A stretch of DNA of 64,000 nt from Eukaryota sp. GEM-RC1 (taxonomy: Eukaryota), in NCBI GenBank assembly GCA_040285855.1, contig JAUFOQ010000013.1, forward strand, positions 806,001-870,000, given 5' to 3'. The notes under the pieces are model-generated. The model was not told where the DNA came from, searched no databases, and saw nothing but the letters and a program-made list of their open reading frames with translations. Positions 1-62,562 of the stretch are shown here, piece after piece. Each line of letters begins with the position of its first letter. Position 1 is the stretch's first letter. The position numbers and the translations under genes are program-made.

Positions 1-845
1 TTTTTTAACAAACATGAGATCATTTAAAGTACTTGCTTGTTCAATAAATCCTACATCAAAGTTAACTTCTATAAAGTCATTTCCAGCAATAACTACTGAC
101 TCTACTTGAAAATAGGATCCTAAATAGGTCAACTCAAAAGCATTTTCAGTAGTCAATTTGATTTTACTTCCACTCAAAAACTCAAAAAAGCTTTGAAAAC
201 TTTCTCTTGGCACCTTCAGCATATCATCAAAGCTAAGTTCTTGTTCATTTGAATCAGCCCATTGACTAGTCCAAAGGTTAGCAAAGTACTTAGAATAACA
301 ACATAAGTGAAGCCTATTTGTTTTAGCAATATAGTCTTTATACTTCAGTTGCACTTCATGAGGAGTTTCCCTCTTCAACTTTTCTAGAATAGTTGATCCT
401 TGGAGAGAGAAGACTTTGTTACTAGACTGTAGTCCCTTTAGTTGAAGGTTTGTGCAGTGGGTGATCAAAGGAGTGTACTTCAAGAGTTTTGCGATCACAT
501 GAATGTCAAAGAGATTGGTTTCGTTGATGTCTAAAGGAAAGCCGTACATGGACAACATAATGGCTTCAAAGATCGAGGGATCTTCAACCATTCCTGAAGA
601 GTTGATTTCAACGTGATCATGGCGATCTAGTTTCTCAAGGTATTTGGAAAAGAGAACGACAATGGAGAAGTGACAGTGGAACTCTAAGTCCTCGAACTCA
701 ATAACACAGTCAGTGAGATGATTGTTGGATCGGAGATATTGTAGCTGTTCGATGGCTTCCTTGGCAAAGTCAGATATGGAGAGCATTTGGGGGAGATTTC
801 ATACAACTTTGACTTTGTAATTATGCTCTCTCGAAGACATATCAT
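1..845 (-). CDS. BTB-BTB protein, copy 1 (runs off the left edge; paralog of the BTB-BTB-CC-LRR gene at 5623-8439); one frameshift near 768
   Basis: Translates to MICLRESIITKSKLYEISPK..LRSNNHLTDCVIEFEDLEFHCHFSIV (BTB1) and HEVQLKYKDYIAKTNRLHLCCYSKYFANLWTSQWADS (BTB2). It has GGCAAAGT where the paralog has GGCAAAAGT. The start codon is uncertain. Confidence 0.75.
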
Positions 846-2102
846 ACGTTTTCTTGTTTCTTTTAAAAACTTCACAGCATTACATCTCTGTTTTGTGATA
901 TGAGATATCAAATCACAATCATCACGATAACAAAAGTGAACTGATATGAAAAATTATGCTGTTGTGGCCGTGTAATGCAAATGTTCCGTACTGATGTGAT
1001 TTTAGTCGTATCGTACCGTCTGTACTTTTAACTTACTAAGATATATTATTACTATTTTGAACATGATGATCCAATGTGAGATTTTACAAGTTACCATCGA
1101 CATAAATTCTACCGTTAAACATTGGTCAGGATGTGAATATAGTGATTGACACTCTGAGTCATATTTAGGGTACGTCATTTGCTGACCACAACTTCAAAAT
1201 GACATTTCTACGTACGAAGCTCAGCAATCGTTCGACATCAACAATAACAGTACCGTCTTCGAATCACAATGTGTTTATTGACTGCACACGACGTAATACA
1301 ACAATGATAAAGGGCCCAAAAACCCACAGATTGGATTTCTAAACGTTCAGAAGATGCAGAAGCAATTTGCACTAGTACTGTGTTTGAATAGTTAATGAAT
1401 CTCCACTTAAAAACCAGTCTTTGTAAATCCATTTAGATTATTCATAAATAGACTCTATATAAACTCAAATGACATCGGTACGGATAAAATTTGTAAGTAC
1501 GTGCCGATCCGTACCGATCCGTACTGTACTTACCAAAGATTTGCGTGCATATCTCCCTGCAATTTGATCTCAAACAACATTATAGCAATTGATATTTTAT
1601 AATGAAATTTAATAAATGTATGAAAAATGTTCAAGACTGAGCTCATTAACACTCTATTTTCCATATTCATATAAAGGAACGATTCAACAATTTCAGGTTG
1701 GGTCTTCAGCTGCAGACGAGTACTCATCAAGAAGTTGGAGAAGCAGGAGCATTAGTCATCAAGGATTAGCATAGGTTCAATGTTTACATCAGGTTCACTA
1801 GTTGAAGTCATTGGTTGTGGAAATTGACGAAGAAATTGTTGTGAAGGCATAATAACATACTTTGGTGATCTAATGCTATCATATAATGCAACTAGAACTA
1901 TGATACAAATACAATGTAACAGTGTGCCATAAATTTGTCAGCGGCACATGTTCTGTTCCAAAAGGTTAGCCTTCGATAATGGAAATTGTTCTGAGTCAGA
2001 CTAATTACGATTGGTACTGTAGAATGCTGGACAATAATATCAGTTTCTAATAACGATATGAATTTCAATTTAAACTTCCAACATATTACTTTTGCTGTGA
2101 TT

Positions 2103-2351
2103 TTATATCGCAGCTGTAACAAAACAAATATAATCGAATTCAATGACAAAAAGGTCTCCATCGCGAGAGGCTTTGACCAGGTCCTGCAGAGCATAGTTTT
2201 CTGTCCTCTCTTCAAGACAATCGATACGGCAAAGGGGACATTGATTCAAGGACTCTAAACATACAGAGCAACAAGTATGTCCTTCGCAGCAGATTAGGAG
2301 GGGAACACGGTTAGAGAGATTGAACGATTCACAACAAACGAAGCAGTCCAT
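2103..2351 (-). CDS. Stand-alone RING-HC mini-ORF (82 aa), a truncated derivative of the RING-kinase family; may be a pseudogene
   Basis: MDCFVCCESFNLSNRVPLLICCEGHTCCSVCLESLNQCPLCR..ALQDLVKASRDGDL matches the N-terminus of 45873-47807. Homology stops at about 2152, just before the kinase. Confidence 0.6.
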   Translation of the reverse strand: MDCFVCCESFNLSNRVPLLICCEGHTCCSVCLESLNQCPLCRIDCLEERTENYALQDLVKASRDGDLFVIEFDYICFVTAAI

Positions 2352-2980
2352 GTTGAGAAGTGATTTAGCTTCAATTTTGGACAACTCTGTCAACGAGTTC
2401 TTTGTCTAAAAAGAAGGTCTTATACAACAATAGTTGTGGTCTTGGTAAGAAGATTAGAGTTGTATATACAATCTCGTTTGATCTAAAAACTACAAATTTC
2501 TCGAAACAATTGGTTTCTGGAATGTGCGTATTGACGGTCCTGAGTTTTATGAATGTAGTTTTCTTCAACTATCACTTACACACCCATCCATCCTATCTAA
2601 TGATTGTCTCATTATGTCAATTCTTCTCTATCATTTTCAAGGGCGTGCTGGCTGACTTTTTTATATCACATCATTCATTTTTTGAAAAAAAGAGCATGTT
2701 TAAGAAGAAACAGTTAGTAACAAGTGTTGGAAAGATTACAAATCTGGCACAGTGTTTGTTTTCGTTAGATGTTTCTGTTGTATGTGCTTTCATCCATGTC
2801 CATTTGCTCAAAAAAGACAAACGTGCTTCCCTTAAGTTCCAATTGATTCGTAGAACCTTTCAAATTTGGTCTAATCTTCATACTCTCATTATTGATGTCT
2901 CTGCTGTTTTCATTCTTATGACTTTTATTTAGAAGAAGTATTTTATTACAAAAAAAGCACACTGAGAATTTGCCACACAA

Positions 2981-3715
2981 CAGGGCTGTCTAAAAATTAA
3001 TTTAGAGCCAAATTAATTTTTAATTTTGGTTCCATAAAGTACCCTAAAATAAGAATTACGGAATTAATTGACGGCATATGGAATATGTTTCCATCATCAA
3101 TAAACGTCAGTAAATCGCAAACAATCAAATATGTAGATATCTGTGTTGTTATTTCATTGGGTATGCAAACATAACAAAATACATACAATTGTCGAGTCCA
3201 TCAGAACAGGTGTTAATTGCGAATTTGTATAGTCCTTCTTCATGATTAGAGTATCCAAACACCACGCTACTATAGCTCACTTCTTCACCCAACATGATAG
3301 TTCTGATATCATTATTTCAGGAAATCATACACGTGACGGATCTCTTTCTACACATGCAAGATATGTGACCCTGTATATGATCTGTGGATTTAAAAAGATA
3401 AGCGTTATTCCAATCTGACCTAGCACTTGAAAGCTAAACATTCTAAATTGTGTCGATTTAAACATCGTGTAGATTGCCTTTGTCTACGTGTGGAACTTGA
3501 AAGAATTGAGCTTTTCCACAGGTTTTGTACAACAGCTATTGTCATACCTAAGTGCTGATTCATCTATAGTAATGTAGTTGATGGATTCTACTTTGGCCTT
3601 AGAAGATCACTCATTACTTTTGTGGACAGGACGATGACATTTGACGCAAGTGTTACGTTTTCTATCGTTAGAAAGTAGTCTTCTAGATCCTCGAAAACCA
3701 AGGCTTCTTGTAACA
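2981..3715 (+). mobile_element. hAT transposon left end with decayed BED zinc-finger
   Basis: Starts CAGGGCTGTCTAAAAATTAATTT, the same end as the MITE at 60011, with TTACGG subterminal motifs. It is a decayed equivalent of the BED-finger ORF at 10849. Confidence 0.7.
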
Positions 3716-4152
3716 GATGAAAGGAACAGCGTTGCACTACGTTTACTTATGTATTTTTTTAATTATTCATGCGATTATTATACCAAACAAATTTCGTTTG
3801 CTCCGGTTGGGTAAAGTTCACATCAATTGTAAATTAATGTAGTATATGGATATTTTACTTCAGCTATGAAGTCACTTAAACATCAAGAAATTAAAGTCTG
3901 ATCTTTTCTAAAGTTTCTATCATACATTTCCGTATTAACTTGCTTTTACCTTTGTCAATGTAGTACCAACATTATTCGGTACCCAAAAAGGTGACCTTAC
4001 TTCAAGAATGTGATATTTCAAAAACACATCAATGCTGATAAGAGACTTTTATATTTCAATTCTATTTTAAGTTTAGATACTTTAACTGGGGGACTGTCAA
4101 CAATATGTTGCACTTTTGCAATAATAAAGCTATAAAATCATTTCTTTCCCCT

Positions 4153-5215: not shown

Positions 5216-5622
5216 GTTGTTTTTACTGCTGATGTACAGTCTAAACAAAATGGTTTTAACTGTGATTATACGGACATACGCTATAAAGAGATAACATCAT
5301 ATTGGATATCAAACAGGGGTTTGCATACTTTGCTAAACACAGTATCTGAAAAGAAGTGACAACATCGGCAAACTGGAAGAATTTTGCAAATACAAATATC
5401 AATAACTTTAGTGTGAAGTGAAGACTACAAGTGACTTGAGTTGGAGTGAAGTTACACACCACCAGAAACGACTAAATAGGTTTAGGAAATGGCGGTAAGT
5501 TGAAACATCATTATAAAACTTGGTAATAGGACAAACATAACCAAACATTTCCAGAGGTTTATTGTATGTAAATGAACTTTCTAAATTTTATACAATATTT
5601 CAAAAAGAAGAAGAAAACGTCA

Positions 5623-8439
5623 TCAATCAAAACATAAGAAGTTAACAATAGAGAATTCGCATGAGATCCGATTATTTGAGATTCTTTTGATGAGTTGTTC
5701 AGTCTCAGAGTCAATAGAGTTACTCCAAAGAATAATCTGAGTAACAGTGGAATTGACCTTCAAAGCATCAGCCAATGCAATGGCACCCTCATTACCAATA
5801 GAGTTATTCATAAGATATATCTCAGTAACAGTGGAATTCACCTTCAAAGCTTCAGCCAGTGCAATGGCACCCTCATTACCAATAGAGTAATACTTAAGAT
5901 CAATTTTAGTAACTGAACCATTCCTCATTTCTTCCAAAACCTGGCTCAATACTACAGTACTATTGTCCCTTTTTTTAGCTAATAATTGTGAAAATTTGTT
6001 CTTTGGCTTTGGAATTAAACCTTGAGAACTTCTAGAAAGAGGTGTTGCAATAGAGTTTTCACAAATTTCATTATTAGCAGGGTTGGATTTAAGACGTTCA
6101 ATTTCTTCTCTTAAAGAACGATTGTCAGTTTCCAAATTTAAAATTTGTTGACTAGAAGACTTTTCCTTGACGTGAAGCTCATTGTTTAGAGTAGTAATAC
6201 TTTGAATTTTTTGGAAAAGTTTAGAATTTTCATTTTTCAAGTTTAAAACTTCATCAGTGAGGTTCTTCTTTGCTCCCACCAGTTCGGTCCTCAACTTTGC
6301 CACGTCAGCAGTGAGTGTGGCAGTCGATGATTGGATTTGAAGAGGGACCATTAGGAGTAAGAATCTGCTCAGTAAAGGTTCAATATCGACGTCATCAAGT
6401 AAATCAGACAAAGTCTCAGAAATAACGTTTACAGTCTTTAAAGTACACGTTATGGATTTCAAACAACTATCGAACTGTGACATTGTCCAATCAGATTTTA
6501 AATTCTGCCAGGAATTACACAAACATTTGGCAAGAAAAACAGAATCAACATTAAAAGAAGAAAGAATTTCAAATATTTCTGGAGTTACTTTGATACCATT
6601 ATTATCAGTAGATTTGATTGATCTGAGACGTTGTTCATGTTTTTTAACAAACATGAGATCATTTAAAGAACTTGCTTGTTCAATAAATCCTGTATCAAAA
6701 TTAACTTCTATAAAGTTATTTCCAGCAGTAACTACTGACTTTACTTGAAAATAGGATCCTAAATAGGTCAATTCATAAGCATTTTCAGTAGTCAATTTGA
6801 TTCCACTTCCACTCAAGAACCCAAAAACTTTTGAAAACTTTCTACTGACACCTTCAGTATATCATCAAAGCTAAGTTCTTGTTCATTTGAATCAGCCCAT
6901 TGACTAGTCCAAAGGTTAGCAAAGTACTTAGAATAACAACATAAGTGAAGCCTATTTGTTTTAGCAATATAGTCTTTATACTTCAGTTGCACTTCATGAG
7001 GAGTTTCCCTCTTCAACTTTTCTAGAATAGTTGATCCTTGGAGAAAGAAGACTTTGTTACTAGACTGTAGTCCCTTTAGTTGAAGGTTGGTGCAGTGGGA
7101 GATCAAAGGAGTGTACTTTAAGAGTTTTGCGATCACATGAATGTCAAAGAGATTGGTTTCGTTGATGTCTAAAGGGGAGCCGTACATGGACAACATAATG
7201 GCTTCAAAGATCGAGGGATCTTCAACCATTCCCGAAGAGTTGATTTCAACGTGATCATGGTGATCTAGTTTTTCAAGGTATTTGGAAAAGAGAATGACAA
7301 TGGAGAAGTGACAGTGGAACTCTAAGTCCTCGAACTCAATAACACAGTCAGTGAGATGATTGTTGGATCGGAGATATTGTAGCTGTTCGATGGCTTCCTT
7401 GGCAAAAGTCAGATATGGAGAGCATTTGGGGGAGATTTCATACAACTTTGACTTTGTAATTATTAGACCTTGGAATCGGATCAACTTCGGATCGGATAAT
7501 CCGATCGGATTTCTCGGATCGGAGCGATTTTGTTGCTTTTGCTCGGATTCCGATTCGGATCGGATTTATCCTACCAGATCCGAAATATCCGATCGGATTT
7601 CTAATGATTTTGATACTGTTGTAGACCCAAAATACATTTGATTACTTTACTAATACTAATATAGATACATTAGTTGGTATCATTTAGTTATTATTTTTAC
7701 AAAAGTAATTACTGAATTTCACTGTATTGATCGTAAACCCCGTTTCTGTACTAATATTACTAGTTATATAAAACGATTGATTTGAAAATCTGACTGTTGA
7801 ACATGATTACGACTACGTCTGTCTCAAATGTCCTACTATTCCGCTGTAGATGTTCTCTCGGATTCTGCCGCCAGCAACATCGAAGTCCATTAATTTGGTG
7901 GAAGAGAAATGAAAGCACTTATACCAAACTTGCTCGAATCTTCTTTTATTGTTCAATACATGCATCATCTGTACCATGTGAAAGACTCTTTTCCCGTGTT
8001 GGGTTAATTGTGTCCAAAAAATGAACATCTCTCAAATGTGACACAGTTCAAGTATTGGTTTTACTCAATTCATGAACAAAACTTGGATTTATGGCTGATG
8101 ATAGACTTTTCCCAGGAGATGCCAATTAATGTTACTTTTTGACTAATAAAACTTTGTAGAATTTTGTTATCCTTCCTTTTACAAAAATGAAGTTCATAGC
8201 ACGTCGTTTCTTTATGGAACTAAAACAGTAATCTTACTGCAAAAACTAAAACAGAATTAATGAAATGTATTAGATAAAAAGGTCAATCCGATCGGATCTT
8301 TCGGATCGGATTCGGATATTGAACACCAGGATCCGGATCGGATTCAGATTTCGATCAGTCAGATCCGGATCGGATCGGATTTGAGATAAAAAATCCGATT
8401 CCAAGGTCTAGTAATTATGCTCTCTCGAAGACATATCAT
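5623..8439 (-). CDS. BTB-BTB-coiled coil-LRR protein, interrupted near its start by a hAT insertion (7464-8410) and a frameshift at ~6825
   Basis: Joins ORFs 6813-7484 and 5623-6816. Two BTB domains, coiled coil LTDEVLNLKNENSKL.., and three 28-aa LRRs (SIGNEGAIALAEALKVNSTVTEIYL). The ATG at 8439 corresponds to 845 in copy 1. Confidence 0.8.
7464..8410 (+). mobile_element. Non-autonomous hAT DNA transposon, 947 bp
   Basis: 17-bp TIRs TAGACCTTGGAATCGGA / TCCGATTCCAAGGTCTA and a perfect 8-bp TSD GTAATTAT (7456-7463, 8411-8418). The empty site is at 817-824. TCGGA subterminal repeats and a hAT dimerisation relic PLIWWK..LAR..ASSVPCERLFSRVG are present. Confidence 0.97.
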
Positions 8440-9706
8440 ACGTTTTCTTGTTTCTTTTAAAAACTTCACAGCATTACATCTCTGTTTTGTGATATGAGAT
8501 ATCAAATCACAATCATCACGATAACAAAAGTGAACTGATATGAAAAATTATGCTGTTGTGGCCGTGTAATGCAAATGTTCCGTACTGATGTGATTTTAGT
8601 CGTATCGTACCGTCTGTACTTTTAACTTACTAAGATATATTATTACTATTTTGAACATGATGATCCAATGTGAGATTTTACAAGTTACCATCGACATAAA
8701 TTCTACCGTTAAACATTGGTCAGGATGTGAATATAGTGATTGACACTCTGAGTCATATTTAGGGTACGTCATTTGCTGACCACAACTTCAAAATGACATT
8801 TCTACGTACGAAGCTCAGCAATCGTTCGACATCAACAATAACAGTACCGTCTTCGAATCACAATGTGTTTATTGACTGCACACGACGTAATACAACAATG
8901 ATAAAGGGCCCAAAAACCCACAGATTGGATTTCTAAACGTTCAGAAGATGCAGAAGCAATTTGCACTAGTACTGTGTTTGAATAGTTAATGAACCTCCAC
9001 TTAAAAACCAGTCTTTGTAAATCCATTTAGATTATTCATAAACTATATAAACTCAAATGACATCGGTACGGATAAAATATGTAAGTACGTGCCGATCCGC
9101 ACTGTACGTACCAAAGACTTGCGCACATTGGTTGTGACTTATCGCCCTGCAATTTGATCTCAAACAACATTATACCAATTGATATTTTATAATGAAATTT
9201 AATAAATGTATGAAAAATGTTCAAGACTGAGCTCATTTACACTCTATTTTCCATATTCATTAAAGGAACGATTCAAAAATTTCAGGTTGGTCTTCAGCAG
9301 ACGAGTAATCATCAAGAAGTTGGAGAAGCAGGAGCATTAGCTGCATCAAGGATCAGAAGAGGTTCAATGATTACATCAGGTTCACTAGTTGAAGTCATTG
9401 GTTGTGGAAATTGACGAAGAAATAGTTGTGAAGGCATGATAACATAATTTGGCGATCTAATGCTATCATATAATGCAACTAGAACTATGATACAAATACA
9501 ATGTAACAGTATGCTATAATTTTCTCAGCAACACATGTACTGTTCCAAAAGGTTAGCCTTCGATAATGGAAATTAGTCTGAGTCACACTATTTCTCCACT
9601 CAGACTAATTACGACCGGCACTGTAGTATGCTGGACAATAATATCAGTTTCTAATAACGATATGAATTTCAATTTATACTTCCAACATAGTACTTTTGCT
9701 GTGATT

Positions 9707-9955
9707 TTATATCGCAGCTGTAACAAAACAAATATAATCGAATTCAATGACAAAAAGGTCTCCATCACGAGAGGCTTTGACCAGGTACTGCAGAGCATTG
9801 TTTTCTGTCCTCTTTTCAAGACAATCGATACGGCAAAGGGGACATTGATTCAAGGACTCTGAACATTCGGAACAACAAGTATGTCCTTCGCAGCACATTA
9901 GGAGGGGAACGCGGTCAGAGAGATTGAACGATTTACAACAAACGAAGCAGTCCAT
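9707..9955 (-). CDS. Stand-alone RING-HC mini-ORF, copy 2
   Basis: MDCFVCCKSFNLSDRVPLLMCCEGHTCCSECSESLNQCPLCR, with the same truncation point and tail as 2103-2351. Confidence 0.6.
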   Translation of the reverse strand: MDCFVCCKSFNLSDRVPLLMCCEGHTCCSECSESLNQCPLCRIDCLEKRTENNALQYLVKASRDGDLFVIEFDYICFVTAAI

Positions 9956-10591
9956 GTTGAGAAGTGATTCAATTTCAATTTTGGATAACTCTGTCAACGA
10001 GTTCTTTGTCAAAAAGAAGGTCTTATACAACAATAGCTGTGGTCTTGGTAAGAAGATTAGAATTGTTTAAATCGTATACACAATCTCTTTTGATCTAAGA
10101 ACTACAAAGTTCTCGAAATAATTGGTTTCTGGAATGTGCGTATTGACCGTCCTGAGTTTTACGAATGTAGTTTTCTTCAACTATCACTTACACACCCATC
10201 CATCCTATCTAATGATTGTCTCATTATGTCAATTCTTCTCTATCATTTTTAAGGCGTACTGACTGACTTTTTTTATATCACGTGTCATTTTTTCAAAAAC
10301 AGAGCATGTTTAAGAAGAAACAGTTAGTAACAAGTGTTACAAAGATTACAAATCTGGCACAATGTTTGTTTTCGAAAAATGTTTCTGTTGTATGCGCTTT
10401 CATCCATGTCTTTTAACTCAAAAAAGACAAAAGTTCTTCTCTAAATTTCCAATGAATTTGTAGAACCTTTCAAATTTGGTCTAATCTTCATACTCGCATT
10501 ATTCATGTCTCTGCTGTTATCATTCTTATGACTTTTATTTAGAAGAAGTATTTTATTACAAAAAATAGCACACTGAGAATTTGCCACGCAG

Positions 10592-11881
10592 TAGGGCTGT
10601 CTAAAAATTAATTTACAGCCAAATTACTTTTTAGTTTTGGTTCCATAAAGTACCCTAAAATGAGAATTACGGAATGAATTTACGGAACATGTTTCCATCA
10701 AAATCAATACATATCAGTTCATCGTAAACAATCAAAAATGTAGATAAAGGTGTTGTCATTTCATTGGTTATACAATTGGAACAAAATACATACAATTGTC
10801 CAATCCATGAGAGCAGGCAGTAATTGCGAATTTGTATAGTCCTTCTTCATGACGAGAGTACCAAAACACCACGCTACTATAGCTCACTTCTTCACCCAAC
10901 ATGATAGTTCTGATATCATTCCTTCAGGAAATCATACACGTGACGGATCTCTTTTCTACACATGCAAGATATGTGACCCTGTCTATGGTCTGTGGATTTT
11001 AAAAGATAAGCGTTATTCCAATCTGACCTATCACTTGAAAGGTAAACATGCTAAATTGTGTCGATCTAAACATTGTGTAGACTGCCTTTGTCTACGTGTG
11101 AAACTAAAAGAATTGAGCTTTTCTATAGGTTTTGTACAACAGCTATTGTCATACCTAAGTGCTGATTAATCTATAGTAATGTAGTTGATGGATTCCACTT
11201 TGGCCTTAGAAGATCACTCATTACCTTTGTGGACAGGACGACGACATTTCAAGCAAGTGTTACGTTTTCTATCGTTAGAACGTAGTCTTCTAGATTCCCG
11301 AAAACCAAGGCTTCTTGTAACAAGTGAAGTTGCTTTTTTTACATCGACATGTTTGAGTTGATGCTTGATAATATGGGAGGTCGTTCAACTACTTTTAAAA
11401 GAAGATATTTTATTCGAGCCACCAGCTGTTAAACGTTCAAGTTCCAGTTTAAGTGCTGCTGAAGAATTCAAAGGTTATCCTTTGCTGAGCCTGTATTGCC
11501 TCAAAACTCAAAAGCTCTTGACTGGTGGCAATATCAAGGACGTAATCGTTACCCTCAACTGGCTTTAATTGCTAGTAATTTCATTGTACTTCAAGCCACA
11601 TCTGTTCCATCTGAGAAATTGATTTATTCTGCAGGCAGGACAGCCACTGAATTTCAAGCTCCGTTGTCTGATGAAAGTGTTACTTCGTTGGTTAGTTTGA
11701 AGTCTTTGCTGAAATTGTTTGTTGATGAGAGTGTTTAAATTTTTTATATAACTTTTAAGAATAAACCATAAATTCCGTTTTGAACTAGTCCTGAACCTGT
11801 TGATACTAATGCGAGATTAAATGCATATTATTAAAAATTGGGTCAGATTCACGGAGCTTGAACCGAATTTGGACAGTCCTA
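10592..11881 (+). mobile_element. Internally deleted or composite hAT element (BED finger plus dimerisation-domain relics)
   Basis: Ends TAGGGCTGTC..GACAGTCCTA (9/10 inverted match). BED-like YTCKIC..SNLTYHLKGKH at 10849-11169 and ALDWW..YPQLALIA..LQATSVPSEKLIYSAG at 11496-11738. No matching TSD. Confidence 0.8.
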
Positions 11882-19680: not shown

Positions 19681-22600
19681 CTAATAAGGATAATAATGAT
19701 GTTCATCATCAATGGAGTACGCTGCAAAAATGTGATCCCAGATCTTACTGTCATTCGAGTCTACTTTACTGACAATGGCGAGAGGAGTCTTACCTTTGAG
19801 ATACTCGTACATTGGATCAAAGTGACGACCATTCTTGAGAGGGCAAATAAGCAGTGCAATACCAAGTTCCGTAGCCTTGAGTGCAATATCATCAAATCTA
19901 GATTCCCAAGTACGACCATTAGGATCTTGAGGATGATTGTCTTCACAACCACAGTTAAATCTCTTACCATGATTAGGTGCATCCCCAATAACAAAGATAA
20001 TTCGATGACCATTAGGCCATTTGGCTTTTAACATTTCATCTAATCCAGTACAGATATCTTCTGCAACGTCATCACCTCCATCAGCAACAACTCCTCCAAT
20101 GGCATTCGAGAGAGCTGTCGCATTACCAAAAGGAATAAGTTCAACAGGAACTGAATCTCCAATATCACGATAGGCACAAACTAAGATTAATTAAAAAAAG
20201 AATAAACATACATGAAAAGAAACTGTTAATTTCTTGGCATCATACCCCATTGCACCAACAGACCGGGAGATATACTCCTCCAAGCCTTTCGCCATTTCTC
20301 TGATTTGATTTGCAGTTTGTTGAATATTCATGGAACTAGTGGCATCGAAAACAAAAGCTGCATATAAAGATAGATCGAGACGATGTTTGACATAATCAGC
20401 ATCAGAAATTCTGACAGCCAAGGAAAAAGGACCATCACTTGATTTACTTGGAAGTAGAAGAAGTTGGATTACTAGGAGGTTTGTCAATACTAACTTTCTT
20501 CCCCTTAGGATGAATCACGTCAGTAGACTTCTTATCAACAGGACCAGCCCAAACCTTTCTTGGAGTAATTCTTTCCTTAGAGGTGTTAAGCTCAATGTGA
20601 GTGAAACTTGCGTAGGAATAGCTACTACCACTTTCGAGTTGAACTTTGATTTGAGAAGTAATGTTGCTAGAGTTTCGGAGGTTCTTGGAAATAATAAAAA
20701 TTTTGTCAAATTTAAATTCTAACCCATCATCAATTCTTTCAATACAAATATCACCTGTCACCTTATTGATCTTAATTCCAAAACGAATATACTTATCGGC
20801 CATTCTCTTTACAAAGTACATTCGAAGTGTTGCTAGAGTTGGAGTATCAGGATTTGGATTAGCAGATTCGTAAACAGATACATATCCATTGTTAAAACTA
20901 AAAGTGATGGGACATTCACCATTAACTAAACTAAGGATGAAGCTACCTGTAGCATTGACATCGAATCTAATGCACAATTCACGTTCAAAGGAGCACGATG
21001 CCATTAAGTAAGCCCATCGATGATGACTCTGAGGTGTAAGAAGTATGTTGAAACCATACTCTAGTTCCTCTTCGTTGTTATAGCTAGCTTCAATCATTTT
21101 GTTTAGATAATCAGGAGAATCAAAAGAATCTGTTAGAATCAAGAAGTTTGCTTTTCCTCCAGATAGTAGTTCAAGGTCGTGTTTGGCTCGAAGACTTAGT
21201 GTGGCATAGACATTTCTCGGTATGACAACATGTTCGACATCACTAAAGGAAATCTTACTCGGAAGATGGCACTCAATAGTGAAATGATTATCTGGTTTCA
21301 GAATTGATTGAACAAATATCTCCTTTGTAACTGAAGAGATATTAAACGCTGACAGGTCCACCTTCGAATGTTCTTTCATGTTCTTAAGAGAGTGGCACAT
21401 ATCAAGAGCAACAGTTTCAGCAGCACCGTTGACTCCAAAATTCTGAACTAATTTGTAATAATTGTTCTTTTTTTCAGTTTCATCAGTGGGAATTCTAATG
21501 TAAGGTCTAAATGGAACTGCTCCATCATGAGTATAATACTTAGTAGCAGCAGTGACATGAAGATAAGTAGAAGGATGCTTCGTAACAGAAGACTTAAAGA
21601 TAACAGCAATCGGTCCATAGTGAACGTTAGTATTAGGTCCTAGAATTGAAAAGACTGTACGATCAGTACGAAGATCTTTATCAACATGGAATCCGATTCC
21701 TACCTTAGCTCCAGATTCGTCAGGAGCACCAACTAAGTGATTCAAATCAAGAGCTGCTTGAGCAATGTTCTTAGCTAAACGACCGAGTTCAGAGCGTTCT
21801 TCCTTTGAGACATCAGTACATTCCATTAGAACACGCATACCATCTGGACAAGTCATTGTCTTATTCAACAAACCATTCATTTCTATCTCAGTAGAGACAG
21901 CTAAGAAATCAGCAGCTTGTTCTTGGTTGGAGTAGTTTACTAATTGATAATGAGAGGCGGCAACAATCTGACGGACTTTAGCAGGGTCTGCAAGCTTGGT
22001 CTTCATCATATTAAGCGAGTAGAAAGCTCCATGAGTTAGACAAGATTCAAAGGTTTCTGGTTTAATTCGATGAACTGGACGGAGTCGCATTAACAATTCC
22101 CCAAGAGCTTTAATGTTTCTAGGTGTAGGAGATTTGGGAAGGAGTGACTGTAAACGGCGCTGATTGCTGACGTAATCTAACTTGCTTTCACCAGAAAACG
22201 TTCCAATATCAGGCATTAAGTTTCCCAGTATTTCAAATAATCTGATATTTCGATGAGAATATCTACGAACATGATCCAAGTCTCCTCTGTTTCTACAAGA
22301 AGCTCCATGACTACAAGGAGGACGGAATTCCAAAACACCTGGATGACTAAAGGTGTTCAAATGAATCTCGTCAACTGACTTACAACTGGTACCATCAGGA
22401 CATGGCTTCCGTTCTAAATGAGCGAACTTCTCCATGTGACTTTTAGTTGTCATCTCCGTACATTGGAAACCTCGAGGACAGACAATCTTTTCAGATGCAG
22501 AAGAACTGAAAGGATCATCAGCCAAATGGATTGGATGGGTGACGTCAGCTTGATGAAGGACAGTGAGGTCAACACAGTTAGGATTAGGGCAAGTCAAATG

Positions 22601-25600
22601 GTCATGATGTTTGAATTTAAGACAGTCTGCATCACGGCAATTATGACCTTTTTCACAGATCGGACGATGCCAGAAGCTTTCTCGATGATCAGGAGTTTGG
22701 TCCTTGCAGAGACTTCCGTGATGACAGGCTAGTGCATGAGTAAAGCTCAAATCATGACTGGAATCACGTTGATGTAGTCGGCAAGTGGAGAACTGTCGAC
22801 AAACAGATGGATGACGACACAACCACGAGTGAGTGTTGATCTGTTTTCTCTTACACTTATCAGACAACTCACATCGGTCAAGATGAAAGTAAATTTGTTT
22901 ATGCTCTTCATCATTAAGCTGAGTACATCTTCCAAAGAGGTCAGGACATGGAATGAAGGAGGTTGGAGTCATTAGAGGAGAACAAGACCGATCCATTCCT
23001 CGTCTGAATCTGGTAAAACTTTCTACATCACCTACTACACTGAAGATAACTCGTTGGAAGAACCTACCATAGATTTGTTCCATGAAACCCAGAATAGCCA
23101 TGACTGACTCAATGGGGTTTCTAAAAGCACCACAACCCAAAGGGGATATGATTAAATGAGTAACATTGTGACGAATAGCAGCAAGGAAGATTGAAACCCA
23201 ACGATTAAAGGTAAATTCGAATTGTTCCTTATTCAGGAAATCATCAAAACGAATTTCTGACATGGGTTTAATATCAGGACGTTCAATAGCAGCTGAAGAG
23301 ACAACATCAATAGTATAAGGTCGAGAAAGAGTCACAAGACCATGTGATTCAGAACTTTTGAAAATTTGAATATTTTCAGAAACAATTACATCAATGTCAC
23401 TACTTGACCAAGGATATTTGACAGGAGGAATTCTACTTCCTTCAACATTAGAAGAATCAAGAGCATAAGCCAAAGTACTCCTGCTAAACAGACTTTCTTC
23501 TTGAGCACTAGCTCCAGTTCTATACCCTCCTCCAGGAGAAACTTCAGTAGCCATGTTAAGACAAGCAATCTTTACTCCAGGATCAGTACCATATTCGTTG
23601 ATGAAATCAATGGCGACTTCAAAGCAATCCTTATTTAAAAAATCAAATGGACCAGGACCAGGGTCTGGAGCGGGGGGTCTTTTGAAAGCCCTACGAATAG
23701 AGGAGTTTGAGTACACGTGATTAGTGATTTGATTAGTCCTTAAAGCAATCGTTTGGGAACTGTTTTCACCTTCTCTAACGTAAGAATATTGACCTCTTGA
23801 ACAGCAGTACAAGGTATTCAGTTGAGCAATGACCAACAAGAATCTGTAGGGGTGATTGTTACGTAAGTCACGATTACATTCTTTGAGAGCAGAAAGATAA
23901 GGTGCAAAAGAATGATCATTAAGCTGAATCCAAGATCGGTAATTAGAAATGGCTATTTGCTCGTAGCCACCAGTTCTGCTTCTCATTTCAGATGCAAAGA
24001 CCTTAGGGAAAGGTGAATTAGGAGAAAACATCTGTACTACTACCTTAGTTAAAGGATGGCCCTTGATAACGATTTCGTTAGGCCAAGTAGGAGTAGTACT
24101 AGTCCAGAGCAACACGTGTCTTTTAGTAGGATCAGTAGTCAAATAAGAGTTCTTTCTAACACAAGGATTAGCGGCAGATAGAGCAGCTAGATAATCATCT
24201 GTGGGTTCTTCAAAAGGATAGTAAACAACTTCGAGGCAACTAGAGTGGTGAGCGTAGTGTTGGAAGGGAAGGACAGTGAAATGAAACTTGTCTATTTTAC
24301 CAGCGTAAAGACAATCAGCAGTAGATCTTCCTTTAAAAATAGACTCAGGAGAAAAGACAGTAGATGATAAGAACAAAAGTTCAAGATTGTAAAATCTGTT
24401 GTTGACGTGATGTTTGACAATATCAACATTAATGGTTTCCTTATCAATGTTGTTTCTAATATCTCTAGAAACCCTATCAACTATATTTGAAGGAACAAAC
24501 ATGACAGTAGCCCGATAACATCCTTTGAAGGTTGTAATGGTCCTGGATTTCGTATTAATTGTAGCTTCAGCTCCATTAACTATTAATTCTTGTAGAAGTT
24601 CAAGACCTATAGCACAAGACACAGTGACACGAACGTGGACAATGGAATCCAAAGACTCAAGAACCTCTACTGCATGGTCAGCACAATCACTTAAGGTTTT
24701 GGTTAAGTAAACGTCAACTTTAGAAGTAAGAGCAGCACCCTTAAAGTCCTCTATTCGCATGAAGAACTCAAACGAAATGGAATAGAACTCTTCAGATCTT
24801 TCAGTTGGCACGTGATCATCAAACACTTTGACTCTCAGAGACTTGAATTGTTCAGACAGAGAGGGATTTAGAGGGCGAATTGTAGAGACGATTGGAGAGT
24901 CTCTCTGGGCAGCTAATCGTTCGATATCATTGGTATGTACGAACATTAGAGGGTGTGAGGGAGAAGTAGCTGGGACAGTATTAGTATTTAACAACTTTGA
25001 TTGGTTATGATGGAGCTGCTGCAGATTAATCTTTCTCAAATCACCACTTCCACTAGTCAAAGCCATTTTGTTATTCTTAAGTTGTTCAGACGGTCGGAGA
25101 TTAAAAGATTCTAAAATTTCAATTATTTGTACAATTTTGGGTCGTAGAATTGGGTCGGGGTTTAGACACCTGTTAATTATACTACACAATACATCCGGAA
25201 TTGACCTATTAAAGGACAAAGCTTTGTCACGATATTTAGCTCCCATTACAGCATATTGGCTCATTCCTTCAAATGCTTCCTTGTTTTGGAAACAATTCAT
25301 ATAACATGATTCCAATAGAGTAAATGTCACTTTGCGGGGTCATTTGGTTGTCAAACTGCTCAGGAGCAGCATAGCGTACAGTCATTGCATTGTTTCTTGG
25401 AACTGTTGTGGTTGATTCAATGTTCCGAGAAGTTCCGAAATCAGCAATTCTTACTCTATTATCCACCAATAAAACATTTCCAGGTTTGAGATCGCCATGC
25501 ACAACTGCTTTACTGTGGAGAAAGCTAACACCTTGACAGAGTTGTTTCGCATAATCGACAGTGAGAAAGGAGAATGAGTTGGGGGAGGGAAGAGAAGAAG

Positions 25601-26052
25601 TAGCTCTTTCCATGACAATTCCGATCCTATCCTCCCAAAAGCAGAGACCATAGACACGGAGAACAGCAGGGTGATTTAGTTGAATAAGAAGGCTCATCTC
25701 CTTCTGGAGCTTTAGTCTTCCTTTTTCAGTAAGTGATATCATTTTAACAGCAACAGGAAGTTGGAACCACTCTGCAGCATAGACAACTGCAAAACCTCCT
25801 TCATCGATCTTGTTAAAAAGCTTGATTTGATTCGATGGGATTTCAGGACAGAGATCGCCATTACGAGCAGCTTCGATGAGCTCTCTAAGAGAATAATTAG
25901 GTTTTTTTAACAAGGGGGGAATCTGTGCGGCATATTGGACATTGTTTCAAAGAGGATGCACATTGAGCACAAGCGGTATGTCCGGAGTCACATAAAAGTA
26001 ACGGTAAGCGCTGAGAAAGATTGAATGGCTTACAGCAGGAGAAGCAATCCAT
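19681..26052 (-). CDS. Giant multidomain protein (~2,100 aa): RING-HC, TKL-type kinase, unknown region, bacterial-type PARG (DUF2263/TIGR02452), PBZ-like CCHH array, putative ART-fold domain, beta-rich domain, VWA
   Basis: ATG at 26052 gives MDCFSCCKPF..CDSGHTACAQC..CPICR. After +1 at the A7 run (~25902) come kinase motifs EGGFAVVY, VAVK, HGDLKPGN, DFG, APE. A +1 at ~25290 leads into the 1628-aa ORF with LNMA..PGGGYRTGASAQEE and LGCGAFRNP. A +1 at ~20450 leads into VWA (FDATSSM, YRDIGD, GGDDVAED, IGDAPNHG), with an intron at ~20181-20211. Confidence 0.8.
20181..20211 (-). other. Short intron (27 or 31 nt) in the VWA region
   Basis: Minus strand reads GTATGTTTATTCTTTTTTTAATTAATCTTAG. The GTTTAT donor (27 nt) restores SFHVFCAYRD directly. 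The GTATGT donor (31 nt) needs one more base upstream. Confidence 0.7.
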
Positions 26053-32020: not shown

Positions 32021-32913
32021 ATCTCAAAATTCTTGTGTGGGATCTTGTACTGGCTTTTCCACGTCTTTTACAAACTGTTGTGCTAGGTTCGTGCTTCCAG
32101 TCAGTTGCTAGAGTTTCGTAGGACAACTCTATACAACGAGCTTCTTATTAAACATCCCAACTTTATCTGTCTACATCCTCTCATCGCTCTTCTTCAATAA
32201 TATACAACCTTTCAACTCATGTCGTTACTGGTTTGCTCTGTGGTTTTCCTCTCCGATTTACCAAGATACCCTGCTAGGGACTTAGGTAGACTGTTTGTTT
32301 TTCTAACTTTCCCTGTAATGGTTCAAAAGAGCTCCCACCTGGTGGTACTTCTTGTCTTCATTTAACTGGACCTAGTTTTGTTAGGATAATTGAGAAGTTT
32401 GTTACTGAGTACTGTACTTTAGAATTGTTAGTGATGAAAGTAATTTTCATCACAACTGCGTGGGAGATAATAAGCAAGAAAACCCCAACTACTTAGACGA
32501 TGAAGAGCCACGTCATCAGTCGTCATCGTCATCAATAATGAGGAAAAGGAAAATGAAGCTATTTGACAAGCCATTGCCAAACAAGTTACTTTAGCATAAA
32601 ACTGTGCTGTCAAAATCCTACATGTAGAAGTTCAGTGTGAGAACGTGCTATCGATGATGCCAAGTCTTATTCGAACATCAGGAAAACGTGTGTCCTCAGT
32701 TGCCAGATTAGCTGACGTTGTAAACGTCAGCAACTGAAAAGGGCTGACAATGCACCCAATAGTCATTGATAGTCTTTATATGTACTGTACATCCACATGA
32801 GATATGATTGATCTAGATTCTTTTCCTACTCTGGACGGAACCAGTATGAGATCTACAAGTCTCCCCTATCTAATCAAAGAAAAACTACTAAGAATTTTAT
32901 TTTAAAGAACTAT

Positions 32914-45250: not shown

Positions 45251-45872
45251 ATTCTTGTTGATTAGAGTAATTTTTCCTATGGTTAGTTATTATGCTATTC
45301 AAACAAACAGCATGTTCCTAATTTCAACGATCAAACAACTACTAGTAAATCAAAATGCGGTAAACTTATCTAAATAATGTTAACCTTCTTGCCAAATTCT
45401 GAACACAATTTTTAAAACGAGTGAAGAAACACTTTAGTGTAACTATTATAGATGCCATTCAAAGCTAAAAAAAAAATCTTTGAAAAGATAACATCATAGC
45501 GGACATCAAACAGGGGCTTGTTTACTTTATTTACACAGTATCCGAAAAGAAGTGACAACATCGTCAAACGGAAAGAATCTTACAAAGAGAAAAATCATAA
45601 AGTTTAGTGTGAAGTAAAGTTTACCAGTGACTTGAGTTGGAGTGAAGTTACACATCACCAGAAATGACTAAATAGGTTTAGGATAGGGTGGTAAGTTGAA
45701 ACATCACTATAAAAATTGGCAATAGGAAAAACATGGCCAAAGATTTCCAGAGGTTTATTGTAGGTAAATGAACTTTCTAAATTTTATACAATATTCAAAT
45801 AAGACTACATACTGATGATTATGGAAGAAGAAAACGTCATCAATTGACACGTAGTGAGTTAACAAAAGAGAA

Positions 45873-47807
45873 TTAGCTCCTGATCCCATTAGTTGAGATT
45901 CTTCTGATGAGTTGTTTAGTCTTAGAGTCAATAGAGTTACTCTGAAGATCAATCTGAGTAACAGTGGAATTGACCTTCAAAGCATCAGCCAATGCAATGG
46001 CACCTTCATTACCAATAGAGTTGAACCTAAGATCAATCTGAGTAACAGTGGAATTGACCTTCAAAGCATCAGCCAATGCAATGGCACCTTCATTACCAAT
46101 AGAGTTTACCCTAAGATCAATCTGAGTAACAGTGGAATTGACCTTCAAAGCATCAGCCAATGCAATGGCACCTTCAGTACCAATAGAGTTATACCCAAGA
46201 TTAATCTGAGTAACAGTAGAATTGACCTTCAAAGCATCAGCCAATGCAATGGCACCTTCATTACCAATAGAGTTACCCCAAAGATCAATCTTAGTAACAG
46301 TGGAATTGACCTTCAAAGCACCGGCCAATGCAATGGCACCTTCAGTACCAATAGAGTTATTCCCAAGACTAACCTCACTAACAGACCCATTCCTAATTTC
46401 TTCCAAAACCTCCCTCAATCTAGGTTTCAACTTACTCAAATCAATCTCATAATTACTATTAACTTCCCTTTTTACAGGTATTTCTTGTTGTAATTTCTTC
46501 TTTGTCTTTGGAATTAAACCTTGAGAACTTCCAAAAGAAGGTGGTGCAATAGCTTTGTGAGGAATTTCATTATTAGGAGAGTTGAATTTTAAAATTTCGG
46601 ATTTAAGACGTTCAATTTCTTCTCTTAAGAAGTGATTGTCGGTTTCCAAATTTAAAATTTGTTGGTTAAAAGACTTTTCCTTGTCATGAAGCTCATTGTT
46701 GAGAGAAGACAAACTTTGAATATGATTGACAAGTTCAGAATTCTCACTTTTCAAGTTCAAAACTTCATCACTGAGTTCATCAATTTTAGTTTTCAATGAT
46801 TCATTTTCATCAATCAAAAATAATTGGTCATTAATAACACCACCAGCTTCCAAAACATCTAAAGTATTTAAAATATCAGTGATTTCATTAATTCGAGGTC
46901 GTAGTGATGGATCTGGATTTAAACACTTCATTATTATCTCTTTCAAACATTCTGGTGTTGAATCATCAAAAGGTAATGGTTTACCTTGAACTTTTGCTCC
47001 AACAATCTGCATCATTGAAAAACCAGCAAAAGCTTCTCGCCCAGTTAAAAGTTCATATAGTATTAATCCAAGTGAATAAATATCACTAAAAGGACTAGCA
47101 TTTGATTCAAACTGCTCAGGGGCAGCATACTTAGGACTCATGGCATTTGTTCTAGTCACGAGAGTTGTGGCGGCGAGGTTCTTGGAAGTGCCGAAATCCG
47201 CAACTCTGACATGGTCATCGACCAAAAGGACATTGGCTGGTTTTAAATCTCCATGTACAACAGACTTGAGATGGAGGAACTTCACTGCCTGGCAAAGTTC
47301 TTTAGTGTATCTGACAGTAGTTGGAGAGAGAAGACTTGGGGAGGGGGAGGGAGAAGAAGCTAATTCCATGACGATACCAATGGAATTATCAAAGAAGGTG
47401 GTACCGAACACACGTATGACAGCAGGATGGTTGAGATTGAAGAGAAGATTCATTTCTCTCTGGAGTTCTATGCGTCCTTTCTCTGTGAGGGAGACCATCT
47501 TGATGGCGACGGAGAGATCAAACCATTGGGCAGAATAAACGTCAGCAAATCCTCCTTCCGCGATCTTATCTCCGAGGACGATTTGATCTGAGGGAATTTG
47601 TGGGCAGAGTTCTCCATCGCGAGATGCTTTGACCAGGTCCTGCAGAGCATAGTTTACTTTCATCTCTTCAAGACAATCGCAACGGCAAAGGGGACATTGA
47701 TTCAAGGACTCTGAACATTCGGAACAACAAGTATGTCCTTCGCAGCAGATTAGGAGGGGAACACGGTTAGAGAGATTGAACGATTCACAACAAACGAAGC
47801 AGTCCAT
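45873..47807 (-). CDS. RING-HC - TKL-type kinase - coiled coil - RI-type LRR protein, copy A (644 aa)
   Basis: Intact ORF with a C3HC4 RING, EGGFADVY, VAIK, HGDLKPAN, DFG, APE and six LRR units. Confidence 0.93.
   Translation of the reverse strand: MDCFVCCESFNLSNRVPLLICCEGHTCCSECSESLNQCPLCRCDCLEEMKVNYALQDLVKASRDGELCPQIPSDQIVLGDKIAEGGFADVYSAQWFDLSVAIKMVSLTEKGRIELQREMNLLFNLNHPAVIRVFGTTFFDNSIGIVMELASSPSPSPSLLSPTTVRYTKELCQAVKFLHLKSVVHGDLKPANVLLVDDHVRVADFGTSKNLAATTLVTRTNAMSPKYAAPEQFESNASPFSDIYSLGLILYELLTGREAFAGFSMMQIVGAKVQGKPLPFDDSTPECLKEIIMKCLNPDPSLRPRINEITDILNTLDVLEAGGVINDQLFLIDENESLKTKIDELSDEVLNLKSENSELVNHIQSLSSLNNELHDKEKSFNQQILNLETDNHFLREEIERLKSEILKFNSPNNEIPHKAIAPPSFGSSQGLIPKTKKKLQQEIPVKREVNSNYEIDLSKLKPRLREVLEEIRNGSVSEVSLGNNSIGTEGAIALAGALKVNSTVTKIDLWGNSIGNEGAIALADALKVNSTVTQINLGYNSIGTEGAIALADALKVNSTVTQIDLRVNSIGNEGAIALADALKVNSTVTQIDLRFNSIGNEGAIALADALKVNSTVTQIDLQSNSIDSKTKQLIRRISTNGIRS
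45930..46380 (-). repeat. 84-bp LRR-coding tandem repeat
   Basis: Near-identical units encoding NSIG(N/T)EGAIALADALKVNSTVTxIxLxx. Confidence 0.95.
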
Positions 47808-60627: not shown

Positions 60628-62562
60628 ATGGACTGCTTCGTTTGTTGTGAATCGTTCAATCTTTCTAACCGTGTTCCCCTCCTAATCTGCTGCGAAGGAC
60701 ATACTTGTTGTTCCGAATGTTCAGAGTCCTTGAATCAATGTCCCCTTTGTCGTAGCGATTGTCTTGAAGATAGGAAAGTAAACTTTGCTCTGCAGGACCT
60801 GGTCAAAGCATCTCGCGATGGAGAACTCTGCCCCCAAATCCCCTCAGATCAAATCGTCCTCGGAGATAAGATCGCGGAAGGAGGTTTTGCTGAAGTTTAC
60901 TCCGCCCATTGGTTCGATCTCTCCGTCGCCATCAAGATGGTCTCCCTCACAGAGAAAGGACGCATAGAACTCCAGAGAGAAATGAATCTTCTCTTCAATC
61001 TCAACCATCCTGCTGTCATTCGTGTATTTGGTACCACCTGCTTTGCTAATTCCATTGGTATCGTCATGGAATTAGCTTCTTCTCCCTCCCCCTCCCCAAG
61101 TCTTCTCTCTCCAACTACTGTCAGGTACGCTAAAGAACTTTGCCAGGCAGTGAAGTTCCTTCATCTCAAGTCTGTTGTACATGGAGACTTAAAACCAGCC
61201 AATGTCCTTTTGGTTGACGACCATGTCAGAGTTGCGGATTTTGGCACTTCCAAGAACCTCGCCGCCACAACTCTCGTGACTAGAGCAAATGCAATGAGTC
61301 CTAAGTATGCTGCCCCTGAGCAGTTTGATTCGAGACCTGGTCCTTTTAGTGATATTTATTCTCTTGGATTAATACTATATGAACTTTTAACGGGACGAGA
61401 AGCTTTTGCTGGTTATTCAATGATGCAGATTGTTGGAGCAAAAGTTCAAGGCAAACCATTACCTTTTGATGATTCAATACCAGATTGTTTGAAAGAGATA
61501 ATAATGAAGTGTTTAAATCCAGATCCATCACTACGACCTCGAATTAATGAAATCACTGATATTTTAAATACTTTAGATGTTTTGGAAGCTGGTGGTGTTA
61601 TTAATGACCAATTATTTTTGATTGATGAAAATGAATCATTGAAAACTAAAATTGATGAACTCAGTGATGAAGTTTTGAACTTGAAAAGTGAGAATTCTGA
61701 ACTTGTCAATCATATTCAAAGTTTGTCTTCTCTCAACAATGAGCTTCATGACAAGGAAAAGTCTTTTAACCAACAAATTTTAAATTTGGAAACCGACAAT
61801 CACTTCTTAAGAGAAGAAATTGAACGTCTTAAATCCGAAATTTTAAAATTCAACTCTCCTAATAATGAAATTCCTCACAAAGCTATTGCACCACCTTCTT
61901 TTGGAAGTTCTCAAGGTTTAATTCCAAAGACAAAGAAGAAATTACAACAAGAAATACCTGTAAAAAGGGAAGTTAATAGTAATTATGAGATTGATTTGAG
62001 TAAGTTGAAACCTAGATTGAGGGAGGTTTTGGAAGAAATTAGGAATGGGTCTGTTAGTGAGGTTAGTCTTGGGAATAACTCTATTGGTACTGAAGGTGCC
62101 ATTGCATTGGCCGGTGCTTTGAAGGTCAATTCCACTGTTACTAAGATTGATCTTTGGGGTAACTCTATTGGTAATGAAGGTGCCATTGCATTGGCTGATG
62201 CTTTGAAGGTCAATTCTACTGTTACTCAGATTAATCTTGGGTATAACTCTATTGGTACTGAAGGTGCCATTGCATTGGCTGATGCTTTGAAGGTCAATTC
62301 CACTGTTACTCAGATTGATCTTAGGGTAAACTCTATTGGTAATGAAGGTGCCATTGCATTGGCTGATGCTTTGAAGGTCAATTCCACTGTTACTAAGATT
62401 GATCTTGGGGGTAACTCTATTGGTAATGAAGGTGCCATTGCATTGGCTTATGCTTTGAATGTGAATTCCACTGTTACTAAGATTTATCTTGGGGGTAACT
62501 CTATTGGCTCCAAGACTAAACAACACATCAAAAGAATGTCAAATAATCGGATCACGTGCTAA
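60628..62562 (+). CDS. RING-HC - TKL-type kinase - coiled coil - RI-type LRR protein, copy B (644 aa)
   Basis: Intact inverted paralog of 45873-47807; ATG at 60628. Confidence 0.93.
   Translation: MDCFVCCESFNLSNRVPLLICCEGHTCCSECSESLNQCPLCRSDCLEDRKVNFALQDLVKASRDGELCPQIPSDQIVLGDKIAEGGFAEVYSAHWFDLSVAIKMVSLTEKGRIELQREMNLLFNLNHPAVIRVFGTTCFANSIGIVMELASSPSPSPSLLSPTTVRYAKELCQAVKFLHLKSVVHGDLKPANVLLVDDHVRVADFGTSKNLAATTLVTRANAMSPKYAAPEQFDSRPGPFSDIYSLGLILYELLTGREAFAGYSMMQIVGAKVQGKPLPFDDSIPDCLKEIIMKCLNPDPSLRPRINEITDILNTLDVLEAGGVINDQLFLIDENESLKTKIDELSDEVLNLKSENSELVNHIQSLSSLNNELHDKEKSFNQQILNLETDNHFLREEIERLKSEILKFNSPNNEIPHKAIAPPSFGSSQGLIPKTKKKLQQEIPVKREVNSNYEIDLSKLKPRLREVLEEIRNGSVSEVSLGNNSIGTEGAIALAGALKVNSTVTKIDLWGNSIGNEGAIALADALKVNSTVTQINLGYNSIGTEGAIALADALKVNSTVTQIDLRVNSIGNEGAIALADALKVNSTVTKIDLGGNSIGNEGAIALAYALNVNSTVTKIYLGGNSIGSKTKQHIKRMSNNRITC
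62055..62510 (+). repeat. 84-bp LRR-coding tandem repeat
   Basis: As in copy A, except that the last two units differ. Confidence 0.95.

Follow-up and report, generated by a model that had tools for sequence, protein, structure and literature searches.

How a single carboxy-terminal tail came to stand behind unrelated heads, and what the resulting proteins do, is the question raised by a gene in a 64,000-nucleotide stretch (the window) of the metamonad Eukaryota sp. GEM-RC1 (assembly GCA_040285855.1, contig JAUFOQ010000013.1, positions 806,001 to 870,000). The genome paper describes GEM-RC1 as a Skoliomonas sp., free-living, anaerobic and bacterivorous (PMC11316075). The gene lies on the reverse strand and is the second of two tandem copies (BTB copy 2); it codes for two BTB domains, a coiled coil and leucine-rich repeats (LRRs), and its tail is also carried by RING-kinase A and RING-kinase B, in which the head is a RING joined to a protein kinase. 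We interpret copy 2 as an in-frame head-tail chimera in which a BTB segment probably replaced the kinase of a RING-kinase gene, within a lineage-wide set of swapped heads and tails. The tails are predicted to bind targets and the heads to ubiquitinate or phosphorylate them, most likely in defence against microbes or viruses. We assign this reading a probability of roughly 55%.

On comparison of the window with itself by blastn, the BTB gene from 6261 down to 5286 was found to be 78-84% identical to RING-kinase A from 46775 down to 45483, as the initial annotation had described for the DNA from the motif L(T/S)DEV onward. The onset of the homology is sharp. In a pairwise alignment 27 of the 30 bases downstream of 6261/46775 match, as against 19 of the 90 bases upstream; the N-termini had been noted initially as unrelated. 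The reading frame is open across the junction and there is no intron, in agreement with the earlier proposal of recombinational rather than exon shuffling. The shared stretch runs from the coiled coil (85.6% identity over the first 58 codons) through a shortened linker and the LRRs to 337 bp past the BTB stop codon. Its coding part (5623..6261, reverse strand) holds the coiled coil, the linker and a ribonuclease inhibitor (RI)-type array of two full 84-bp repeats plus cap, and comes from the RING-kinase family. Its non-coding 3' flank (5286..5622, reverse strand), previously put at about 340 bp, matches that of RING-kinase A (45483..45872, reverse strand) at 293 of 335 aligned bases (87.5%). 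Past 5286/45483 no further homology was detected, the best local score being lower than the shuffled maximum. We also observed that the stop codon kept by RING-kinases A and B is lost in copy 2 (5623-5658, reverse strand), where 11 codons are read into the former 3' flank.

The tail had been described as shared with RING-kinase A in particular. The alignment upholds the sharing, but A is not the closest relative: among the paralogues, which are known as predicted proteins only, the RING-kinase P0125 matches the coiled coil of copy 2 at 51 of 59 residues and RING-kinase A at 45 of 59. RING-kinase B has the same tail, which is 100% common to A with the coiled coil included, and much less of the 3' flank. 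The BTB fusions are more distant over the coiled coil, with 32 of 59 residues matching in P0003 and 19 of 31 in the tandem sister P0122. Since the coiled coil of copy 2 is closer to P0125 than to P0122, whose head is 95% identical, head and tail disagree in their kinship.

A junction of this kind could also be a chimera made between repeats during assembly or polishing. The GEM-RC1 assembly is based on Nanopore reads polished with Illumina data, according to the genome paper (PMC11316075), and 1-bp indels are present even in an AATF gene that is apparently single-copy. However, four BTB-LRR gene models (P0001, P0002, P0003 and P0122) join in frame at the site equivalent to 6261 with tails that are 62-68% identical to that of copy 2, and the copy-2 tail, at 78-86% identity to RING-kinase A, is no copy of it. 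Because four diverged gene models share one junction site, we consider such an artefact very improbable. At the DNA level the locus is thus unlikely to be a misassembly and is not a one-off fusion, the two objections that the initial annotation had itself raised.

In both tandem units a cut-off RING-kinase 5' half stands upstream of the BTB gene on the same strand, 92-94% identical to RING-kinase A in DNA over 66 codons, and this arrangement is new here. The half before copy 2 (9707..10066, reverse strand) comprises the upstream region and the RING; its homology ends at codon 67 and it forms an 82-aa open reading frame (ORF) from the ATG at 9955. The half before copy 1 (2103..2635, reverse strand) has its ATG at 2351, and its upstream likeness to RING-kinase A extends to about 280 bp. 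In unit 2 the RING half (to 9756) comes first; next are some 2.5 kb that take in upstream DNA and the BTB head (a transposon-like element excluded, see below), and last is the RING-kinase 3' half from codon 345. Since the 5' half stands upstream and the 3' half downstream of the BTB segment, we infer that this segment probably replaced codons 68-344, that is the kinase and the first heptads, of a RING-kinase-coiled-coil-LRR gene. In the RING-kinases the coiled coil extends upstream of the junction position too. No splicing that would link the orphan RING with the BTB gene was apparent, as by eye there is no GTATGT-like donor after the break of the sort seen in a third gene, RING-kinase C. The family of tandem-BTB heads is found across three isolates (20 of 20 looked-up matches, among 97). 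BTB-LRR looks derived, because none of the 64 relatives scanned has an LRR and the nearest relative in another isolate, P0230, ends in a DUF4116 tail. Ectopic recombination would have joined the BTB segment to the RING-kinase tail, with the coiled coil acting as a tolerant joint, and gene conversion may then spread the tails.

In order to place the chimera among its relatives we compared heads and tails across the predicted proteins. The same BTB head (85-92% identity over the helical stretch) gives way, at points only a few codons apart, to LRR tails (P0001, P0002, P0003, P0122), to a USP domain (P0013) or to a short tail (P0004), and more distant BTB heads are followed by Sel1, Gly-rich, MIF4G, kinase plus ubiquitin, or TLDc tails. 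The RING-kinase head gave 104 matches, 32 labelled GEM-RC1 and 10 TZLM1-RC, and its tails include LRR, Sel1, ubiquitin and weak TLDc among others. One protein, P0007, is RING-B-box-LRR; in the BTB and RING-kinase genes of the window Pfam showed no RING, B-box and coiled coil in that order. A second tail, of 155 aa, is common to the BTB protein P0314 and seven kinases; among P0314 and the kinases P0159, P0134 and P0146 it is 63-70% identical, and between P0159 and P0134 the kinases are 43% and the tails 70% identical. By its ESM features this tail is assigned to SPRY (0.96, with 20 of 30 matches in the SPRY set). A quick kinase tree of 40 rows, in which truncated models are counted under the label 'other', requires no fewer than three changes at starred branches for the LRR label and the same minimum for the SPRY-like label. 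The combinatorial repertoire suggested initially is therefore supported, and is extended, since one tail is found behind several different heads and one head in front of several different tails. We are highly confident that this is a real recombinant family. As a separate observation, the P0013 gene model has its BTB head on a full USP/UCH deubiquitinase domain, so that a predicted ligase adaptor is wired to the opposite activity.

RING-kinase A (45873..47807, reverse strand) and RING-kinase B (60628..62562, forward strand) each code for 644 aa and are intact; A has no intron and is composed of RING, non-RD kinase (HGD), coiled coil and LRR. The RING carries, as read from the sequence, eight zinc ligands in RING-HC spacing (C3, C6, C22, H25, C28, C31, C38, C41), and would be an E3 ligase. 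The kinases of the family are non-RD, with HGD in 40 of 45 proteins, HAD, HGV and HEY in one each, no motif match in two and HRD in none; their catalytic motifs are retained in most members. Non-RD kinases are a class linked to innate immune signalling, as the literature has it (PMC8463890). The head of RING-kinase C (19681..26052, reverse strand) had been taken as the same head on another tail. It is instead a distant paralogue, at about 65% identity in DNA and 129 of 204 residues, and falls in a separate kinase clade; the gene is, judging from its sequence, an older relative. It has three frame breaks, one short GT-AG intron-like stretch and a long tail in which a microbial PARG-like domain is joined by Cys/His repeats and by a region that weakly matches vWA. 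Part of this tail is also present in P0161, on a different kinase. The microbial-type PARG/TIGR02452 domain lies about 2 kb from a Macro-domain gene (28153-29454), and there may be an ADP-ribose theme at these two genes; an 81-bp tandem repeat at 28962-29420 (forward strand, 5.7 copies at 98%) codes for the acidic tail of the Macro-domain protein.

Could the BTB head act in ubiquitination? For copy 2, Pfam gives two BTB stretches and LRR_6, and in the BTB head it has no match to BACK. The AlphaFold2 model of the head paralogue P0004, built from 52 sequences, has a mean confidence (pLDDT) of 92.9; in it two BTB domains are packed as in engineered tethered BTB heterodimers (4u2m; TM 0.79 on target, Z 21.4, root-mean-square deviation 3.0, 230 aligned), and a helical block is predicted after them at residues 245-340. 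The model of P0122, from three sequences, has a BTB part with pLDDT below 50. The helical block shows weak matches to KLHL11-Cul3 (E 3e-5), A55-Cul3 (E 2e-4) and KEAP1 119-273 (Z 12.6). On these models the tandem BTB could be a self-contained pseudo-dimer, serving as a self-dimerised platform, whose BACK-like block would recruit a cullin while the LRR binds the target. The head is comparable to the BTB-BACK Cullin-3 adaptors KLHL11, KBTBD2 and vaccinia A55 in having a BTB, then a helical block, then a repeat domain, but it differs from them in its two BTBs per chain, as in the tethered heterodimer, in having LRRs in place of Kelch and in its missing Pfam BACK match. To our knowledge, many BTB domains are not cullin adaptors. 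One binding tail would thereby serve a predicted cullin ligase in some proteins and, in others, a kinase-bearing head predicted to be a RING ligase, and we find it fairly likely that these proteins have a role as ubiquitin adaptors or ligases.

The LRR units are RI-type repeats of 28 residues (LRR_6). Among the eight distinct 84-bp units in the window, four exposed strand codons of the 28 carry 13 of the 21 extra residue states, a number reached by 3 of 20475 four-codon sets, although this count is weakened by the four positions having been picked after the protein sequences were seen. The nonsynonymous proportion (pN) is 0.42 at the exposed codons and 0.04 elsewhere. Nine close paralogues supply 26 distinct units; in these, 11 and 10 residue types occur at the two positions that follow the strand leucine, as against one or two at most helix positions. 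The layout of one repeat per exon with introns at the module borders was not found here, as the reading frame continues without interruption through the LRR arrays and across the junction. RING-kinases A and B show 60 differences over about 980 bp, followed by a tract of 909 bp without any, which covers the coiled coil, linker and first LRRs (46041..46949, reverse strand), and then differ by about 13% in the last repeat and cap. An identical tract between diverged flanks looks like gene conversion. A third type of LRR gene is present at 30559-32023 (reverse strand); its N-terminal domain of about 150 aa has no Pfam match and is common to many GEM-RC1 LRR proteins.

It may be argued that none of this requires selection, and that a repeat-rich genome makes chimeras by ectopic recombination, the in-frame ones of which linger, most of them without a selected role. 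The assembly of the isolate is 48% repetitive, by the figure given in the genome paper (PMC11316075), and in the window there are orphan RINGs, an inserted element, numerous disrupted frames and, near 50.3-50.6 kb, the fragment of a kinase gene. In addition, conservation is no lower in the non-coding flank (87.5%) than in the coiled coil (85.6%), and the orphan RINGs have a ratio of nonsynonymous to synonymous rates (dN/dS) of 0.4-1.05. These points are opposed by a dN/dS of 0.19 for the kinases of A and B and of 0.45 for both the BTB head and the coiled coil (few changes), by the retention of catalytic motifs in most kinases, by the restriction of LRR change to exposed positions and by the occurrence of the tandem-BTB head with varied tails in three isolates. 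We therefore regard near-neutral turnover as an unlikely account of the family.

The two BTB copies belong to a tandem duplication in which 1-824 is 96% identical to 6640-7463; the upstream part of unit 1 (817-3721) and its counterpart in unit 2 (8411-11328) are 92% identical. Of copy 1 the window holds the 5' part with its frame intact (1..786, reverse strand), and the gene continues beyond the window edge; at full length its product is P0122, an intact BTB-BTB-coiled coil-LRR protein of 699 aa. The head of copy 2 (6262..7425, reverse strand), which starts at the ATG at 7425 (MLSIS-D/T-FAKE in paralogues), contains two BTB domains with a helical BACK-like block after them and runs into the first part of the coiled coil. 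The initial annotation had extended the gene to 7463, which is instead the edge of a 947-bp non-coding terminal inverted repeat (TIR) element (7464..8410) with 18-bp perfect ends and an 8-bp target duplication. This element, which we take to be hAT-like, lies 39 bp upstream of the ATG and is absent from copy 1. A placement of the element within the coding sequence was dropped, as the paralogues put the start at 7425. As assembled, copy 2 carries one superfluous T near 7402 (+1) and lacks one base near 6824 (-1), and each indel falls within a run of T; the alternative that copy 1 lacks a T was abandoned, copy 1 being the copy in frame. The indels may be sequencing errors, because the paralogue P0123 ends at the same place as copy 2 and the AATF gene is also split, and for these two reasons we rejected the indels as proof of a pseudogene. 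Genes for MIF4G, WD40-like and AATF proteins (35664-37249, 17272-18220 and 38497-39389) each lie over two frames with no visible intron, the AATF N-terminal and TRAUB domains falling in different frames by Pfam; this suggests frequent 1-bp assembly errors in the window.

Even if the proteins bind and modify targets, these need not be foreign. The proteins might be substrate receptors or kinases for the cell's own proteins, in the cell cycle, the cytoskeleton or the response to soda-lake stress. Hormone signalling is where ligases that combine RING, kinase and repeats have a role, plant KEG being an example (PMC3697954, in the part bearing on KEG), and the present locus offers no immune gene context. 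The LRR folds match NOD2, NLRP3 and ribonuclease inhibitor, and also RanGAP and axonemal proteins, so that the fold by itself does not mean a sensor. A lineage-specific expansion, changes in repeat number and hypervariable exposed residues would fit an arms race better, and we consider targets of the cell's own to be rather improbable. Lineage expansion with variable repeats has been interpreted as defence in other organisms (PMC3341825 and PMC4986451, in the relevant passages). Because of the expansion, turnover and surface-focused variation we favour defence over other functions, and hold a defensive role, taken by itself, to be a possibility of somewhat below even chance.

Several observations weigh against our interpretation. 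The coiled-coil tree has no starred branch; it is unresolved and weakly pairs P0001 with P0003 (82/84). The orphan RING (92-94%) and the tail (86-88%) are unequal in identity to RING-kinase A, which a single event from A would not give, so the swap would have taken place in a different paralogue, or conversion would have altered the sequences afterwards. Polishing across near-identical copies could yield the 909-bp identical tract, and P0013 and P0017 could be gene-model joins. With its two indels and a TIR element near the start, copy 2 may be dead. Among the domain assignments, the RING fails to reach the Pfam threshold (Sina_RING, E 1e-6 to 5e-3), profile searches of Pfam and PDB with the SPRY-like tail were blank, the BTB-BACK-Cul3 matches reach a TM of only about 0.3-0.35 on the query, and the LRR matches take in the axonemal and RanGAP structures mentioned above. 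Positive selection on the LRR strand, when set against synonymous change, is borderline (Fisher p 0.05-0.08, on 7-8 related repeats).

The RI-type LRRs had been linked to NLR-like receptors. The comparison stands for the fold, with its RI-type array and its matches to NOD2 and NLRP3, and fails for the class, since no NACHT or NB-ARC was found by Pfam in the genes of the window, in P0122 or in the scanned RING-kinases, and a coiled coil lies between head and LRR. Without a nucleoside triphosphatase (NTPase) domain the BTB-LRR and RING-kinase proteins are not NLRs. TRIM E3 ligases are built as RING-B-box-coiled coil-SPRY. TRIM proteins, and zebrafish NLR-B30.2 as far as the cited source describes it (PMC4852459), resemble the present family in a ligase-type head, a coiled coil, a variable C-terminal binding module and gene conversion module by module, and TRIM-like parts occur in the GEM-RC1 lineage as the RING-B-box-LRR protein P0007 and the SPRY-like tails. 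The heads here differ in including kinase and tandem BTB, and the tails swap between unrelated heads.

Fungal NLR repertoires, in the account of Dyrka et al. 2014 available to us (PMC4986451), share combinatorial effector/repeat architectures, modules 80-99% similar on unrelated N-terminal domains, and conserved repeats that diversify. Unlike ours, they have a NACHT or NB-ARC hub with WD, ANK or TPR repeats, where here there is no NTPase, a coiled-coil joint and heads of RING-kinase, tandem BTB or RING-B-box type. The LRR genes of Tetrahymena (PMC6564038) and ROCO-LRR genes of Ectocarpus (PMC3341825) are likewise species-specific LRR expansions outside animals and plants, with ectopic recombination and a proposed defence role in the sections consulted; they shuffle one-repeat exons, whereas here LRR arrays and junctions are intron-free and whole tails with 3' flank move between heads. 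Plant KEG (PMC3697954) has RING, then kinase, then protein-binding repeats, but these are ankyrin and HERC2-like, KEG is unique in Arabidopsis by the same partial source, and the likeness drawn here to the RING-kinases is one of architecture. As a tentative and rather doubtful extension, the skoliomonads may have an NTPase-free, intron-free combinatorial immune system of TRIM-like 'bind and destroy' receptors, in which RING-non-RD kinase, tandem BTB and RING-B-box heads are exchanged, at a coiled-coil joint, over RI-LRR, SPRY, Sel1 and TLDc tails; in such a system gene conversion would spread the tails and the exposed LRR residues would diversify, all within a free-living eukaryote that branches deeply.

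The main text of the genome paper (PMC11316075) has no BTB, leucine-rich, kinase or ubiquitin, and its readable supplements no BTB or LRR. A literature search with the large supplement of that paper outside its scope returned no report of such head/tail shuffling for the GEM-RC1 lineage. Similar shuffling has been published for fungi, fish, ciliates and brown algae, in the sources cited above, and is new for this lineage as far as the searches show.

Some further features lie close to the RING-kinase genes. A broken kinase fragment of their family is present at 50228-50637 (reverse strand; 62% to P0145). Two ORFs at 43571-44891 (forward strand), about 600 bp past the 3' flank of RING-kinase A, have no Pfam or NCBIfam match; by eye, and by motif, they resemble the terminal part of a non-LTR retrotransposon, with the last portion of a reverse transcriptase and a restriction-like endonuclease. 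Upstream of RING-kinase B there is a palindromic 30-bp tandem array (60004-60284), and about 100 bp of the array flank is also found upstream of both orphan RINGs (2974-3074 and 10593-10688).

Little is settled about the way in which bacteria and viruses are sensed by free-living protists. The locus preserves a head swap along with the two halves of the gene that probably received it, and provides candidate receptors that can be tested in a metamonad amenable to culture. A modular design of ligase, coiled coil and sensor could, on this evidence, be diversified without introns or an NTPase hub. If turnover were instead near-neutral, the locus would still be a clear example of new domain architectures arising through ectopic recombination.

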